From Endomicrobiales bacterium (GTDB lineage Bacteria > Elusimicrobiota > Endomicrobiia > Endomicrobiales > CAWCFT01): a stretch of 64,000 bases of DNA. The position numbers were made by a program. The stretch lies in contig CAWCFT010000003.1 in the NCBI GenBank assembly GCA_963794945.1, forward strand, positions 32,001 to 96,000, in the 5' to 3' direction. Numbering within the stretch: position 1 is the first letter of the stretch; each line of letters starts with the position of its first letter. Shown one piece after another: positions 12,001-27,000 of this stretch.

Positions 12001-15000
12001 CCACCCCGAACAGCAGCCCGGCTGGATTATACTTTGATGGAGCCAACCTCTGGGTACTAGATACCAACGCGGCGAAGATCTATAAGCATAAAATGGACGA
12101 AACTCTTTCTATTGTGAGCGTTTTCGACAGCCCAGCTGTCAGCCCTTGCGGTATGTTCCGGGACGGCGAGTATTTCTATATAGGCGACTATAAAACTTCA
12201 CGAATTTACAAGGTGTCGGTAAATGATTTTTCCGTAAGAGAAGTGTATTCAATGCCGGATTTTGAGGAAGGTAAGAATAAGCTGGCCAGCATCACATGGG
12301 ACGGTTCCAGCATCTGGGCTACGGCTGATGGTGTTGGAAAGATATTTAAAATACCGTTTAAATCTTTAAAAACAATCAAATTTTAGTTTAGTAAATGCTA
12401 CTATTTATTATACTGATTTTAACAAGATTACACAGATTATAGGCAACAATATACCATAAACTTTGTGCAATAGTTTGGTTCAAAAAGACTAACAAAAAAG
12501 GTCTTGACAAATAACAGGATCTGTGTTATATAGTTAGTGGAAACAAGAAGGCTGTCTGAAAGTTAACGACAATAGCAAACTCCGGGAAACCGGAGGACGC
12601 AAAGCCACGGGGCTAAAGATAGGGGGCTATCAACGCCAGCCGGGTTACCGAAAAGACAGCTGCAAGACGGGTCTCAAAACGTTATTTGTTTGACATTAAA
12701 TCAGCAATACAAGTCCCCCTATCTTAAGCTACCGGGCATCACGAAAGTGAGCGGTAGTTTTTATTTTTGATGTGAGATCGCCCCCGATTTCACGCAAAGT
12801 TCTTTAAAAGAAGTTCCGATAAAGGCAAACTCCGGGAAACCGGAGGACGCAAAGCCACGGGCCTAAAAGGCGGAGTTGATCAGCCGCTTCAAGGTAGCCG
12901 GGTTACCGAAGACTAAGCCGTTTTCAAGTTCCGCGCGTATCGCGGGATGAGAGCCCCCAAACGGCTGATAAAGAGCAAGGGTTAACGCGATTTATGACCC
13001 GAACTCCTTAAAAGTTTAGGTAACCGGATTGTCCGTGGCGACGATTCGGTTTTTATTTTGCGAGGGTAAAAAGATGGAGAAAAAAATGGTTTTGAAAATG
13101 ATTCTCACGGCACTGGCTCTTCTGGCTGGCTGGACGGTTCTCCCGTCTGCCGGTTCTGAGCAGGCTTACAGTATCGTTACAAATTTTCCGAATCCATTTG
13201 ATAGCCGGGAAGGGTCAACGACCATCTGTTACACACTTTCCTCCGAATCGGAAGTACAGGCAAAGATATACGATCTCCTTGGAAATCTTGTCAGGGAGTA
13301 TCCGTCCAAGATCGAAACAGCCGGGATAAAAACGGTTGTTTGGGATGGGACGGACCAGTATGGCGCCAAAGTTTCCAAAGGCGGCTATATTCTGACGGTT
13401 GAGATTAAAAGCGGTTCCGAAAGCATAATTGCTACCCGCAAGATTGGCGTGATCCACTAAGAGAGGAAGAAAATGGAAAGGTCGATGAAAAACACGAATC
13501 TTAACAAGACCATAAGCAAAATCGCATTGATTTTGCTGACGGGATTCGTATTTTTATCGATAAATGTCATCAGTCCGGAGCGCATATTCGCTGACGCTAC
13601 CGGCGGTCAACCTGGACAATTCCTTGCGTGGGGCGCGGGCGCAAGGTCGCTTGCGATGGGCAGTGCCTTTTATTCCGTTTCGGATGACGCCTCTGCTACT
13701 TACTGGAACCCGGCGGGACTTGCCCAGATGGACCGCAAAGAATTAATGGCTCTGCATGTCAGTCTGTTTGCCGACACGAACTATGATTTTATTTCTTATG
13801 TACACCCGACCCCAAAGTACGGCGTGTTCGGGTTGAACCTGACAAGGCTTGATTCGGGCGGCTTTGAAAAGGTCAATATCACCTACGATTCGACTCAAAC
13901 CGATATAATAAATATTCAGAACATGGGCACTTTTGATGATGTGCAAACCGCGTTAACCGGCGCTTACGGCAAGAAGATCAGCGAGCATCTTTCGATAGGA
14001 GTATCAGGCAAATACATAACGCACACATTAGACACGTCAACAAACGGTTTCCTGACTTTCGATGTTGCCACAATGGTGCAGGGGGTCAGTAAAGAGCTTC
14101 CCAAGCTTAAGCTTGGGTTCGGCATACAGAACCTTATGGGCACTAAATTCGGCGATACGGATGACGTGTTGCCTATAATATTTCGCGCTGGAGTAAGTCA
14201 CCCCTTCTTAAGAGATAAACTTTTAGTAGCTTTCGATATAGATAAAAACATGAATACCAGCATGGGCTGGCACATAGGAACCGAATACTGGTTGTTGAAT
14301 TTCGCGGCCCTCCGCATCGGTTTCCAGGGCGGCAATGGTCTGACAGAAACTGACGCTGGGTTTGGAGTAAAATACAAGGATTATGGCATAGATTATGCAT
14401 TCGGTATACAAGACCTGGGGCTTTCAAGCAGGATATCGGGTACCTGGAGATTCGGGCCTTCCATCTCTGAGAACCGCGAAATCCTAGTTCGCCGCTACAT
14501 GCAGGAAGGCATGGAGGCGTACCGTCAAGGCAACTTCCTGCTTGCGTTCAACAGGCTTGAGGCAAGTCTTGACATAGACCCCGCGAACAAGGATGTTCAA
14601 AAGATGCATAGCAGGATGCAGCTTATAGTAGGATACCTCCAAACAGCTGCGGGTGAGAGCGAAGAAGCGGTATCTATCAGAAAGGGCGTTGCCGGATATG
14701 TTGAAAGCGATGAGAAGGGTGCTGTAAACGCTTTCAGATATGCTTATTACAAGAACCCAAATAATACAAAACTGCTTGCTTTATTAAACAGAATCGAAAA
14801 AGATGCCGGTATAACGACAACCGAGGCCTACAAAGAAGATGTTGTCGGCTTTACAATCATAGACCAGAAAGTTTACGACGCACGCCAGTCAATAGTAGAA
14901 GGTAAATATGATCAGGCGCTTATAAAGTGCCAAGAAATACTGAACCTTGAGCCCGCGAACCTTACAGCTATGGAAGTCATGGGTTCAGCGTTCTTCATGA

Positions 15001-24000: not shown

Positions 24001-27000
24001 CCCGGGAGATCGAGTTTAAACAAGCGCTTGAAAAAAAGGACCTCGAGAAGGTTTTGCAAATAAGAGAGATGGAAGAGAAGATGCGTTCCCAGGAAGCTGT
24101 TTTCAGGCAGGCCGCTGAAAAGAAAGAAATTGAATTATCGGCTTTTGCCAGAACAGGCTGAGGAAAAACTTAAAGCCAGAGAGATTGAGCTGAGGCACTT
24201 GATAGAACAGAAGGATGCTGATATAAAAGAAGCGGTTAAAGACAATGTGGTAAAGATAACGGCCCTCGAGCAAGCTCACGGTCAGCAGATCGCTCAGAAA
24301 GACCATGAATTCAGAAATCAGCAATTGCAGTGGATCGAACGTATTCAGGTGAAAGAAAAAGAGATCAACGCGGCCGCAGAAAAGGAGAACACGTTAAAGG
24401 TGAGGATCGCACAGGTAGAACAAGTTGTACACCAGCTGGAAGAAAAACTTAAAAATGAGACCGAGTCACTTATCGCTGAGCGGGCCCACAATGAACAGAA
24501 CGAGAGGGAGTTCAATGCCGCCATCGTGCGAAAAGAAAATGAGTTCAAAGAAGCAGTTTCGAAGCAGGAAGAAAAATTACGCGCCATTGGAAAAGAGCTC
24601 GCCGAGTCTCTTGCCCACTCGCAGATACTTAACCTCGAAATAGCCAAAAGAGAGCAGCAACTCATTCAATTCAAGTCTGATATAGAACGGAGCGCACAGT
24701 CGGCTGCCTTGCTAGCAAAAGAGAACGAGAGCAAATCAATAGAGCTAACAGAAGCCTTGTCTCGCGCTCAAGGCCTAAGCCTTGAAGTGGCGATGAAAGG
24801 TCAGCAGCTGATTCAGTTCAAAACGGAGCTCGATAGGAGCGAAAAAACAATTGAGGCGCTCAAGAGCGAAAACGAAATAAAAATAAAGGAATTAGCCGAT
24901 GCCGCGGCGCGTGCTCAGGGCCTCGGCCTAGAACTCGCCAAGAAAGAGCATGAGCTCGTTCAGGCAAAGATCGATATAGATAGGGCTTCACAGGCGTTCC
25001 TCGTCATGGAGAAGGAAAAAGAAGGCAGGATGAAAGAGGTGTCCGAGCTTATCGAAAAGAGCAGAGAACTCAGCTCTCGCCTTATTGAACAAGAACGTAA
25101 CAGTAGAGAGCTCTCAGAGCGCATAAGAGATAAGTCGGAAGAGGCCGCGCGTGTGACAGAAATTTTAGCGCGGACGGAGAATGAGCTTAAGGTGGCACGC
25201 TCGGGCTTCCTAACAGAACTTTCAAAAAAAGAGAATGAAATAATCTCTTTCAGGGAGAAAGACAGCGACTCAAGGGTCAAGATATCATCCTTTGAGCAAA
25301 GGATTAGAGAACTTGAGGAAAAACTTGAAAATGGGGAACAGGCCATTAAGGGAAAAGATGATATGCTGCGCGATAAGGAGACAGAACTTCTTATACAGCA
25401 GGAAAAGACGGAGCAGGCAAAAAAGGAGCTCAATGATAGACTTTTAAAAGAGCAGGAAAAATTCACACTCGCGGTCGATCAACTTAAAAAAGAGTCGGGT
25501 GATAAGTTATTACAGGAAGAATCTAAATTGAAGGCGCAAACGGATCTCTTAAAAGAAGAGGCCAGGAATGCCGTAAATTTGAAAGAGCTTGAAATAAGGG
25601 ACCTGAGGAATGAAAAAGAGAATCTGAAGACAGAAGCCGCGAAGATGTCGATGGAGATAGTTTCCAAGGAAAAGGATATATATGAATTAAAGAACAGCCT
25701 GCTCTCCAAGGAAAGAGAAATAACCCATGAAGTGGAGCGCAGGGAGTCTGTGTTTGCTGGCGAAAGGAACGCGATGTCGGAAAAAATACGGATGCTTGAA
25801 GATGCCCTGAGAGAGGCTCAGAACAATTCAGGGGAAGGGGCTAAGCGCCTGGAACAAGAACTCAAGGAAAAAGTAGAGGAGTTTACCGCAGAAAAGAGAA
25901 ATAAAGACGAAGCGATAACCGCCCTAAAAGCGGAGAATAATGCCTGGCGCCTGGAAAAGGAAAAGCTGCTCGAGCTTAAGGCCCAGTCTGAAGACATGAA
26001 CCAGGCGGAGCTTATGAGCGTGCAGAGGAAACTCTGGGAAAACAAAGAGAAGTCCAACGAGCAGCTCAAGGAAATGGAGCGGGAGATCACCGCACTCAGA
26101 GATGCTCAGAAAGACGTCGAAGAAAAGGTAAGAACGGAGCTACTGAATAAATACAGCGCGAAGATAATGGAGCTGGAAAAAGAGAATGAGACGCTGTCAA
26201 AAGATGTTTCTACAGAGGTGCGTACGCTCAGGAGCTCGCTGCAGGAGGAACTTAAGAAAAAAGAGGAGCAGCTAAGCACCGAACGCTCTAGCTGGGAAAT
26301 GAAGCTTAAGGAGAAAGAAGACATTATCGCCGACATGGCGAAAAAAATGGAGAGTGCCGGTGAGAAACAAAAGGAAAAGGACGTTATGTCCACCGTGCAG
26401 GCGATAAAGAACGCCGTAGAGACAAGAACTGTGGGCTCTGACGCTTCTATAAACGACAAAACGTTGGTCATAGAAAGGGCTAAAGACCTATTTGATAAAA
26501 CCGCGGTAATAGAGCCTCGTTCGAAAAGCGATGACACTATCCCGGCTGTTAAGGGCATAGACCTGCCGTCTAGCGATAAAAGGTCGCTTTCCGGTCTGAT
26601 CTGCGGTATATGGAAGAGCATCAACGAGCCCGTCATAGAAATTAACGTTAAAAAAAATGAAGATAGAAAAGGATAATTTAGCTATGGGAACAAAAACGGA
26701 ATTTGAATGGGAAAAATATGAGAAGCGATTTGCTGAGCTGGAAAATCGTATTTCCTGCCCTTCGCGCCTAAAACCATCGGCCTCTAATAATAAATCAAAT
26801 GATATAACGGACTGTTTTGGGAAACACGATAGCCAAAAACACGAAGAAACAGTTGTTTTGCCTGCTGTGCGGGACAGCTCCTCTTATATGCTCGCAGAAG
26901 AGGTCAGATTTTTGAAGGCGGAGATAGCGCAGCTAGCGCAGATTAAAGAAGAGTCACTAAAACTCAAATATGACATAGCAAACATAGCAAGCCTTAAAGA

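Follow-up and report, generated by a model that had tools for sequence, protein, structure and literature searches.

The window analysed here spans 64,000 nt of the genome of an Endomicrobiales bacterium (GCA_963794945.1, contig CAWCFT010000003.1, positions 32,001-96,000 of the forward strand; completeness 85.9%, contamination 5.9%), and all coordinates below are window positions, with contig position 32,001 as position 1. It opens inside a plus-strand che operon (1-11122) that extends upstream beyond it, in which profile matches identify MCPsignal, CheR, CheY, CheB-HNOB, CheA, REC-PAS, an FtsA/PilM-like protein, two CheC proteins, CheD and CheY. CheW and the HAMP half of a frame-split MCP lie at contig positions 5' of the window. 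The first-pass annotation was right to call this operon complete when those positions are counted, giving a full set of CheW, two binding proteins, MCP, CheR, CheY, CheB, CheA, two CheC, CheD and CheY. The last gene before the riboswitches (11166-12386, +) encodes a response regulator (Response_reg, 2.9e-27) with a transmembrane helix and a repeat-rich C-terminal domain, seen in the translation as a hydrophobic stretch and five similar repeats. Its orthologue in the closest relative, G151, is 65% identical and occupies the equivalent place, and the protein is possibly an accessory of the cassette that follows.

That cassette, described in the first-pass annotation as two tandem c-di-GMP-I aptamers, a CTD mini-protein, a PorV-like barrel and a FliF-FliG fusion, is confirmed by Rfam, Pfam and NCBI-type family matches, as are its paralogues on contigs C4 and C16. 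Both aptamers lie on the plus strand, 5' of the operon, and exceed their gathering scores. The first (12564-12652) scores 83.9 bits over the full length of RF01051, whose gathering score is 35, and the second (12815-12911), of the c-di-GMP-I class, best fits c-di-GMP-I-GGC (RF03167; 72.1 bits against 59). Our own CM, R1, gives them 97.7 and 87.2 bits, respectively. Each is followed on the same strand by a terminator-like hairpin and U-run. The one at 12726-12768 was found by eye and by folding 12715-12785, which yields a -16.1 kcal/mol hairpin with a U run after it; it is not among the matches of a consensus terminator scan; the other (13022-13061), directly 5' of the first gene, was found by the scan as a 12-pair stem before a T-run and folds at -15.9 kcal/mol. 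Rfam places an aptamer 5' of 12 of 14 type-A loci. With R1, built partly from seven aptamer-positive type-A loci that are themselves counted here, the figure is 53 of 80, and 0 of 16 for type-B/C loci. Expression of the cassette would then be governed by tandem c-di-GMP-I riboswitches.

The first two genes, both on the plus strand, encode envelope proteins, and family matches bear out what was first proposed for each. The product of 13074-13460 (g00738) is a CTD-only secreted mini-protein, consisting of a signal peptide and a type-A-like sorting domain, with matches above cut-off to FlgD_ig (42.8 bits, cut-off 27; 4.1e-11) and TIGR04183 (26.1 bits, cut-off 23), and a Por_Secre_tail match at 3.4e-4. 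Orthologues of 129-161 aa stand at the equivalent place in G151 and a further relative, G065. The next gene (13473-15104; g00739) encodes an outer-membrane barrel of the PorV/PorQ family that ends in a TPR domain (NF033709 PorV_fam, 140.3 bits, cut-off 90; 1e-40). Its AF2 model (pLDDT 82.6) has 14 strands (residues 89-327) followed by 11 helices (331-542), and its best Foldseek matches in the PDB are type 9 translocon chains (8gl6_F, 7.5e-13; 6h3i_F, 3.9e-11).

The third gene (15163-16969, +; g00740+g00741) encodes a fusion, here FliFG, of a FliF RBM3/collar domain, a transmembrane helix, FliG_M, FliG_C and TPRs, and it proves, as first described, to be one gene split by a frameshift. Its two ORF pieces (15163-16479 and 16472-16969) match YscJ_FliF_C (27.1 bits) and FliG_M (5e-15), with a TPR tail and a FliG_C match divided into model positions 2-54 and 57-107; RBM1/RBM2 and FliG_N are absent by Pfam. 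Intact orthologues are about 600 aa long. Against one of them, P0002 (601 aa, 89% identical), the break appears as one extra base near 16471, outside any homopolymer. P0002 finds FliG-MC structure 1lkv by phmmer at 1.3e-39. Its AF2 model (pLDDT 82.4) begins with a periplasmic domain of alpha-beta-beta-alpha-beta order, continues through a TM helix and the FliG helices to a TPR region, and has Foldseek matches to 1lkv (4.4e-12), FliF S-ring/RBM3 chains (2.8e-5 to 1.7e-4; TMt 0.43-0.49) and 8ucs_H, a FliG_C chain in complex with MotAB (TMt 0.86). Across 112 sequences, neither the Gly-Gly hinge (G360, G361) nor the first acid of the torque helix (E454) varies. In the 21 type-A sequences the torque helix retains its acidic pair (E at 21/21 and 16/21), and the two arginines, equivalent to R281 and R297 of E. 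coli, are replaced by G, N or S in 21/21 and by T, S or N, respectively, in agreement with the loss noted in the first pass. The FliM-binding motif of FliG_M is kept only partly.

Two giant plus-strand genes complete the cassette. The first (17082-22653) encodes a coiled-coil protein, split into 1553 and 264 aa, whose pieces correspond to residues 1-1549 and 1590-1847 of a single 1851-aa orthologue in G151; its C-terminal TPR sits in the 264-aa piece, and the translation shows no signal peptide. The second (22679-26676), with a Pro-rich N-terminus, is split into 340, 148 and 848 aa, which align one after another along an undivided orthologue in G151 (1087 aa) and in G065 (1244 aa). The earlier description of Pro-rich coiled-coil proteins (g00742-746) therefore stands as to their nature, but the five ORFs are pieces of two genes.

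Three genes of the cassette, all between 15.1 and 26.7 kb, are interrupted by four frame breaks in total, and the FliFG break lies outside a homopolymer, as might be expected if the cluster were decaying into pseudogenes and no longer worked here, irrespective of the family's role in other genomes. If the breaks are real, this copy is dead. Other conserved genes are split in the same style, however: MotB (103+99 aa), a nickel-insertion protein (242+115 aa), the MCP, and PorV-like and FliFG genes in the other two cassettes. Such a pattern is what an assembly prone to indels would give. The pieces are otherwise undamaged and still 60-90% identical to intact orthologues, and a relic at this site appears quite unlikely.

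Searches of the Endomicrobiales genome with FlhA, Flagellin_N and FliMN_C gave no match, with 4 of 14 control genomes positive each time, which, for these three profiles, bears out the earlier statement that flagellin, flagellar export and FliM/FliN genes are missing. These parts might belong to an ordinary flagellum encoded in the unassembled 14% of this incomplete and partly contaminated genome, leaving the fusion merely an odd FliF/FliG, and FlhA, the one of the three profiles searched at phylum level, does occur in 6 of 301 Elusimicrobiota genomes. Against this, no FlhA match was obtained in 100 of the 106 FliG_C-positive genomes, many of them 95-100% complete and one of them, G284, a closed 2.72-Mb chromosome with FliG_C and MotB. 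The fusion also lacks RBM1/RBM2 and FliG_N, and the three paralogous cassettes adjoin PorV-like and CTD genes, not flagellar ones, making an ordinary flagellum extremely improbable. MotB is present in 99 of the 100 genomes. Across all 301, FliG_C occurs in 106, MotB_plug in 116, both in 105 and neither in 184, a co-occurrence confounded by phylogeny, since two families (89 and 88 genomes) make up most of the last class.

The Endomicrobiales genome holds two flagellar-type MotAB pairs, one at 256 kb of C4 and one with its MotA on C12, and an orphan FlbD (77 bits) at 412.8 kb of C4. No pair adjoins a cassette, as the first pass had noted, and the same holds in its class. In the PDB, the only matches of either MotA protein are flagellar MotA/PomA chains (1.3e-47 and 2.6e-45), with no ExbB/TolQ chain at E<=1e-3. 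Where a stator has its rotor-contact pair, both proteins retain an Arg and a Glu spaced by eight residues, and their MotB partners have plug and OmpA domains. MotA/B lie within the 20-kb locus at 21 of 38 FliFG loci from 24 relatives. In a second set of 80 loci, of which the 51 with at least 6 kb downstream were counted, MotA, MotB and FlbD are each found on the same strand at 34, and small ORFs directly before MotA proved to be FlbD in six of six cases. FlbD, MotA and MotB are co-encoded with FliFG in one operon in relatives, an addition to the first-pass annotation. By tree position, both MotA proteins are orthologous to these cluster-encoded stators: that of C4 falls inside a clade of operon-encoded type-A stators (support 98/98), and that of C12 pairs with a type-B operon stator as its sister (100/97).

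Judged by what its domains are and how they fold, by the order and co-occurrence of its genes and by its conserved riboswitches, all of which are shown, the cassette is probably a non-flagellar rotor-stator machine built from the torque core of the flagellar motor, whose ring formation, rotation and output we infer. The rotor first proposed, an MS-ring/FliG analogue, is supported by domain and fold evidence that was reproduced, and gains a stator. A single chain would carry the periplasmic RBM3/collar ring domain, membrane helix, FliG_M, FliG_C and cytoplasmic TPR tail, and many copies would assemble into an inner-membrane ring. Flagellar-type MotA5B2, aided by FlbD and anchored through MotB to peptidoglycan, would push FliG_C and turn it. 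The flbD-motA-motB genes seem to belong to the cassette operon across most of the phylum and to have been relocated in this genome's lineage. Also encoded in the operon are the PorV-family barrel, whose TPR would be periplasmic, the CTD-only protein and two giant coiled-coil proteins that would be cytoplasmic. Several features weigh against the proposal: both torque-helix arginines are missing in type A, the FliM-binding motif is only partly kept, the stator genes lie outside the cluster here and in the class, this copy has its four frame breaks, and the co-occurrence follows phylogeny.

Compared with the flagellar motor core (FliF, FliG, MotA5B2, FlbD/SwrD), the cassette shares the RBM3/collar-like domain, the FliG_M and FliG_C folds, the hinge, the conserved acidic pair, MotA/PomA-type stators with their Arg/Glu pair, MotB plug and OmpA domains, and FlbD directly before motA. 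It differs in a genome that has no match for export gate, rod, hook, filament or FliM/N, in a FliF part without RBM1/RBM2, in covalent fusion in place of FliG_N, in the lost arginines of type A, and in its TPR tail, giant coiled-coils, PorV-like barrel and riboswitch control. Without a FliM/N-type C-ring, rod or export gate, there is no known output shaft. Parts of PMC6079021 describe full-length FliF-FliG fusions engineered in Salmonella that still assemble rings; these likewise join both proteins in one chain, but they are lab-made, complete and set in a flagellum, whereas FliFG is natural, trimmed and found in flagellum-less genomes. Other ion-driven 5:2-type motors work outside the flagellum, namely ExbBD, TolQR, AglRQS and Zorya ZorAB, which the main text of PMC12505986 separates as "generic ion transporters" from "flagellar ion transporters"; unlike that group, which has no FliG, the cassette has stators that are flagellar-type by sequence and a FliG partner. 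That main text mentions neither Elusimicrobia nor PorV.

In Bacteroidota, type IX secretion and gliding combine a SprA/Sov translocon, a PorV shuttle, CTD cargo and the GldLM/PorLM rotary motor. A FliFG ring with MotAB might accordingly power a type IX-like pathway for secretion or sorting, whether or not it rotates continuously, standing in for the missing GldLM/PorLM and driving CTD proteins through a SprA-like translocon onto PorV-like shuttles. CTD and PorV-family genes directly adjoin FliFG in all three of the genome's cassettes, and a PorV-like gene lies directly upstream of FliFG in 52 of 65 relatives' loci with enough flank. The barrel model best matches PorV chains of solved translocon complexes, the sorting domain is type-A-like, CTD-type matches occur at 17 places in the genome, and a SprA-like 1754-aa protein (TIGR04189, 139.6 bits) is encoded elsewhere in it. 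The very small CTD protein also recalls PorA, which parts of PMC12152298 describe as the smallest verified type A cargo, staying bound to PorV with its CTD. In both systems an ion-driven motor would be tied to surface proteins, but here its parts are flagellar rather than GldLM and the PorV-like protein has a TPR domain. The genome yielded neither a match to GldK, GldL or GldM nor a PorU of full length, although no control genome was positive in the SprA and GldL searches, so those negatives are weak. No SprA-like match reaches the family cut-off. SprA-like genes occur in 256 of 301 phylum genomes, widespread without the cassette, and are common in two families (86/88 and 49/89) where FliG_C is nearly absent (1/88 and 1/89), which argues that the translocon does not need the FliFG motor and against a simple type IX secretion motor. 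Nor is the outer-membrane link universal, as some lineages with FliFG-FlbD-MotAB have no PorV-like gene beside it. The barrel and CTD protein of the first-pass annotation stand, but the type IX association is weaker than its title implied, and the energising role is rather unlikely.

For the rotor-stator machine, our best guess at an output is the moving or handling of PorV-bound CTD surface proteins, for motility on surfaces or for the dynamics of adhesins, and chemotaxis might steer it. Immediately 5' of the cassette, both here and in G151, come the che operon and the membrane-anchored response regulator, and the C4 cassette comes after a histidine kinase and response regulator, so the module could instead be a signalling or mechanosensing device in which such neighbours read stator engagement or ring load, with no cargo work. 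Yet che adjacency is found in G151 only among relatives, a kinase is absent at most loci, and it is hard to see what the giant coiled-coil proteins and the barrel would contribute to sensing, which makes that role improbable.

The best explanation is that the window holds a type-A copy of an Elusimicrobiota-wide, flagellum-independent machine. Literature searches found no paper describing a FliFG-MotAB cassette, and the evidence points to a rotary cell-envelope machine new to the literature. With such a machine, the torque-generating core of the flagellar motor would have been reused without a flagellum.

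The window's FliFG gene (15163-16969, plus strand), a fusion of a FliF RBM3/collar domain, a membrane helix, the FliG middle and C-terminal domains and TPRs, is read in two frames, 15163-16479 and 16472-16969. Together these carry the Pfam domains YscJ_FliF_C and FliG_M (PF14841, 5e-15), TPRs, and FliG_C (PF01706) in two halves flanking the frame break. The first-pass annotation took the pair for one gene split by a frameshift, and comparison with P0002, an intact 601-aa orthologue 89% identical to the window copy, bears this out by placing one extra base near 16471. In a sequence search, residues 277-489 of P0002 match the FliG-MC structure 1lkv at 1.3e-39. 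An AlphaFold2 model of FliFG (mean pLDDT 82.4; input alignment of 112 full-length relatives) matches the same structure in Foldseek at 4.4e-12, the FliG_C of a MotAB-FliG complex (8ucs_H) with a TMt of 0.86, and FliF S-ring/RBM3-collar chains (8z5v_A, 6sd3_Q, 6scn, 8z4d and 6sd1) with E-values of 2.8e-5 to 1.6e-4. The RBM3 and beta-collar family PF08345 scores 27.1 bits against a cut-off of 23.8. By Pfam, 1lkv and Foldseek, FliFG contains the middle and C-terminal domains of FliG; the whole-protein FliG equivalog TIGR00207 scores 86.2 bits, below its cut-off of 226.7.

FliG_N is the domain that binds the C-terminus of FliF. A separate FliG_N was not found in FliFG, where the PF14842 match falls on the FliG_M region, and in the model the FliG part is joined covalently to the membrane helix in its place. 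RBM1 and RBM2 of FliF surround the export gate; the YscJ_FliF family PF01514 gave no match to FliFG at E<=0.1, and the modelled periplasmic part spans only about 165 residues. The modelled chain opens with a signal or anchor helix and an alpha-beta-beta-alpha-beta domain, in which two 18-residue strands are separated by a 45-residue disordered loop with invariant prolines. After the periplasmic domain come the membrane helix, a Gly-rich linker, the FliG middle and C-terminal helices and the TPR tail.

The charged residues of the FliG torque helix are two Arg, an acidic pair and one Lys. In type-A sequences, the class to which the window copy belongs, the acidic pair is Glu in 21/21 and 16/21 aligned sequences and the Lys position is Lys or Arg in 18/21, while both Arg positions are substituted in all 21. 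The rarer type-C paralog keeps the first Arg and the Asp in 3/3 sequences. The Gly-Gly hinge and the first torque-helix acid do not vary among the 112 full-length relatives aligned; only Glu, Pro and Arg of the FliM-binding motif in FliG_M are conserved in FliFG. A protein atlas also holds clusters with FliG_C, FliG_M and YscJ_FliF_C on 446-681-aa proteins, most commonly from Pseudomonadota, Bdellovibrionota, Cloacimonadota, Balneolota, Bacteroidota and Thermodesulfobacteriota, so FliFG-like fusions may occur outside Elusimicrobiota.

Downstream of FliFG, the ORFs g00742-746 had been annotated as separate proteins. This does not hold, as the five map consecutively onto two unbroken orthologues (1851 aa and 1087-1244 aa) and are pieces of two genes; on this alignment, the operon contains four frame breaks. 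Genes of the other two FliFG cassettes, on contigs C4 and C16, are also frame-split. The same kind of split occurs in the MotB and nickel-insertion protein genes of the assembly. It also affects a conserved MCP gene of the che operon (locus L142, 11163-13128; contig C3:31162-33127), where a 484-aa HAMP piece and a 207-aa signalling piece lie in overlapping frames, the second half at window positions 504-1127. Because further conserved genes are split alike, an indel-prone assembly is the likely source of the breaks. That the cassette is a dead relic in this particular genome we consider quite improbable. Contigs from public data, three DNA sequencing runs of a single study with no RNA run listed, cover 15598-15944 and 16706-17200 and leave 16471 uncovered.

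In this 85.9% complete genome, searches for FlhA, Flagellin_N and FliMN_C gave no match, while four control genomes were positive each time, and FliG_C is confined to the three cassettes. These results agree with the first-pass claims on FlhA, flagellin and FliG_C. An ordinary flagellum hidden by genome incompleteness is given almost no weight. FliFG differs here from flagellar FliG, which has FliM/FliN as partners, and the stators differ from flagellar MotAB, which serve a flagellum.

Four loci of the MotA/ExbB family are present in the genome. One is ExbB-ExbD-TonB and one, close to a large TPR gene, is interrupted by an in-frame stop; the other two are MotA-MotB pairs with MotB_plug and OmpA domains. 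The PDB matches listed for the two MotA proteins are all flagellar MotA/PomA chains, over the full length (8ucs_C, 1.3e-47; 9lu9_A, 2.6e-45), and both proteins keep an Arg and a Glu, eight residues apart, at the stator's FliG-contact site. Full-length likeness, the Arg/Glu pair, and the plug and peptidoglycan-binding domains place them among flagellar-type MotAB. In a MotA tree, the gene at C4:256 kb falls within the clade of stators that stand beside type-A FliFG (support 98/98), and the gene on contig C12 is sister to a type-B operon stator (100/97). An orphan FlbD lies at C4:412.8 kb. The unlinked type-A MotAB adjoins two opposite-strand genes for proteins of 994 and 403 aa (locus L018, 7779-11974, minus strand, contig C4), both matching our profile of CTD-bearing proteins; a match to the CTD part of PorU lies nearby (C4:257793-258098), and two T2SSE (PilB/PilT-like) ATPases flank the pair on the other side.

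Across 301 sampled genomes of the phylum, FliG_C was found in 106, FlhA in 6 and MotB_plug in 116; FliG_C and MotB_plug occur together in 105 and are both absent from 184. Of the 100 genomes with FliG_C but no FlhA match, 99 have MotB; among these is a closed chromosome of 2.72 Mb. Since the genomes are related, the counts do not represent independent events, and most of the class with neither comes from two families, of 89 and 88 genomes.

Gene order was compared around FliG_C matches in 24 genomes, over 40 loci no longer than 20 kb, with ORFs labelled by profiles built on proteins of this genome. Type A, that of the window, runs (CTD protein), PorV-like-TPR protein, FliFG of 600-680 aa, one or more giant coiled-coil proteins, an ORF of 72-80 aa, MotA and MotB. 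Type B consists of a giant CTD protein, a PorV-like protein, FliFG of about 500 aa, MotA and two MotB, and type C of FliFG, two other genes, MotA and MotB. MotA/B lie inside the locus for 21/38 FliFG genes (type A 8/20, type B 10/15, type C 3/3); the greedy ORF set gave no full FliFG at loci L024 and L056, and L058 holds only a 228-aa gene end. The small ORFs tested are FlbD in 6/6 cases.

In a second set of 80 loci, the source MAGs carry the label Elusimicrobia or Endomicrobia, except for one named "Ignavibacteria" and a few with no label beyond "bacterium"; counting used stop-to-stop frames, as several high-GC loci defeated greedy ORF calling. Where 6 kb or more of downstream sequence was available (51 loci), MotA, MotB and FlbD were each found on the same strand in 34, and a PorV-like gene stands directly 5' in 52 of the 65 loci with 2 kb or more upstream. 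Stator-less loci make up the window's own class, in which coiled-coil genes enlarged to about 1600 and 1000 aa follow FliFG and no MotAB comes after. In a FliFG tree, the window gene sits in a type-A clade (24 rows, support 100), and lineages with in-operon MotAB branch outside its subclade; the tree is rooted at its midpoint alone and does not show the order of events. A PorV-less subtype, in which FlbD-MotA-MotB directly follow FliFG and no aptamer match is found, was seen at loci L082, L084, L094, L104, L106 and L115, L106 being on the closed chromosome.

At the outer membrane, the CTD mini-protein (13074-13460, plus strand; 128 aa with a signal peptide) scores 42.8 bits for FlgD_ig and 26.1 for TIGR04183 (cut-off 23). 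The adjacent 543-aa PorV/PorQ-family protein with a TPR tail (13473-15104, plus strand) scores 140.3 bits for NF033709 against a cut-off of 90. Its AlphaFold2 model (pLDDT 82.6) shows a 14-stranded barrel followed by 11 helices; the structures that resemble it most are chain F of 8gl6 and chain F of 6h3i, two type 9 translocon complexes, which rank above FadL and TodX. Complex prediction between its residues 40-543 and the periplasmic residues 25-195 of FliFG gave a score of 0.03 against a mark of 0.32. CTD-type matches occur at at least 17 places in the genome; in the window, a 682-aa protein with FlgD_ig-like repeats (60122-62170, minus strand) bears a type-A CTD (TIGR04183, 33.4 bits).

The genome shares a PorV/PorQ-family barrel and CTD cargo with the type IX secretion system, yet differs from it in the core. 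GldK, GldL and GldM gave no match, GldL, like SprA, being without a positive-control match; a full-length PorU was not found, its matches covering the CTD part only. A SprA/Sov-like protein of 1754 aa (locus L060, 9155-14419, minus strand, contig C5) scores 139.6 bits for TIGR04189, below the cut-off of 200. Next to its gene lie those for an IS4 transposase and LptF/G, and another PorV-family protein, 521 aa long, is encoded close by (L060, 18304-19869, minus strand).

The barrel and CTD cargo bring in the reading that FliFG-MotAB energises secretion. Against it, SprA-like genes of about 1800 aa occur in 256/301 genomes of the phylum, and a FliFG-FlbD-MotAB subtype exists without PorV; we regard this reading as unlikely. 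Because SprA-like genes are common in two families almost without FliFG and MotAB, the cassette is excluded as an obligatory or general motor of the SprA-like translocon.

Expression of the operon is predicted to respond to c-di-GMP. The two tandem c-di-GMP-I aptamers reported upstream were recovered on the plus strand over the whole Rfam model and above the gathering thresholds, at 12564-12652 (83.9 bits, threshold 35) and 12815-12911 (72.1 bits, threshold 59). Since hairpin folding places a stable hairpin with a U-run 3' of each (about 12726-12768 and 13022-13061, plus strand), the leader is predicted to comprise two complete attenuator-type riboswitches in tandem. In the minimum-energy fold, part of aptamer 1 pairs with a complementary stretch directly 5' of the terminator. 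The sequence of its second-stem hairpin is near-identical in six first-position aptamers of relatives (alignment A3). As this sequence complements an 11-nt stretch 5' of the terminator (12618-12632 with 12712-12726), the two may form a switching helix.

Rfam finds aptamers of this class just 5' on the same strand at 12/14 type-A loci. Our own covariance model, built from 15 type-A aptamers, finds them at 53/80 type-A loci, 7 of the 53 being model-building places, with tandem copies at eight. The same model found none at 16 type-B and type-C loci or at the MotAB and FlbD loci of this genome. In relatives G060 and G078, the aptamer ends 3-10 nt 5' of the PorV-like start codon. Predicted riboswitch control is part of the system, and an OFF switch would be the simplest reading of its direction.

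The last gene before the riboswitches (11166-12386, plus strand) encodes a protein in which a response-regulator receiver domain is followed by a linker rich in Ala, Gln and Pro, then by a single hydrophobic helix and by five similar repeats that span about 220 residues and look like a beta-propeller. Such a CheY-like protein would be anchored in the membrane and have its repeat domain in the periplasm; orthologues stand at the same place in relatives G151 (65% identical) and G065 (weaker). In the che operon further upstream, a 651-aa FtsA/MreB/PilM-like actin-fold protein (6734-8689, plus strand) is encoded between a REC-PAS gene and two CheC-like genes, and CheB (REC and methylesterase; 2480-4093, plus strand) has an extra C-terminal haem-NO-binding HNOB domain (1.9e-7). 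Just 3' of the FliFG operon, a 280-aa coiled-coil-rich protein (27473-28315, plus strand) has a C-terminal LysM-like peptidoglycan-binding match (3.8e-8).

Taken together, a non-flagellar rotor-stator machine, whose rotation and output we infer, is the best-supported reading and a fairly probable one. FliFG would form rings in the inner membrane, flagellar-type MotAB/FlbD stators would act on FliG_C, and cytoplasmic coiled-coil and TPR partners would stand in for the C-ring; in most lineages, the PorV-like barrel and CTD proteins would lie at the outer membrane. That the FliFG module is instead a signalling or mechanosensing device seems to us improbable. The rotor-stator reading extends, tentatively and with rather less than even chances, to a new Elusimicrobiota class of envelope-spanning rotary machine. 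Here, a one-polypeptide MS-ring/FliG rotor and flagellar stators, with neither export apparatus nor filament, would pass rotation to PorV-bound CTD proteins for surface motility under chemotaxis and c-di-GMP control. Such a machine could descend from the flagellar motor by loss of parts, or be a relative of that motor's pre-secretion ancestor that has survived.

To our knowledge, the FliG-MotAB torque interface is known from flagella only. In full-text literature searches covering main texts, no description of a FliF-FliG fusion together with MotAB in bacteria lacking a flagellum came up, and the main text of a recent survey of MotAB evolution mentions neither Elusimicrobia nor PorV (PMC12505986). 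If the reading is true, the flagellar rotor would here be seen for the first time in a non-flagellar role, in a conserved, multi-paralog system that keeps the same torque interface and FlbD while discarding export gate, rod, hook, filament and C-ring. It bears on the long-standing question of whether a ring-plus-stator motor can be independent of type III secretion, and a single-polypeptide minimal rotor is a good subject for structural and single-molecule study. The findings also suggest that uncultured "non-motile" Elusimicrobiota may have overlooked motility or surface-protein dynamics under c-di-GMP control.
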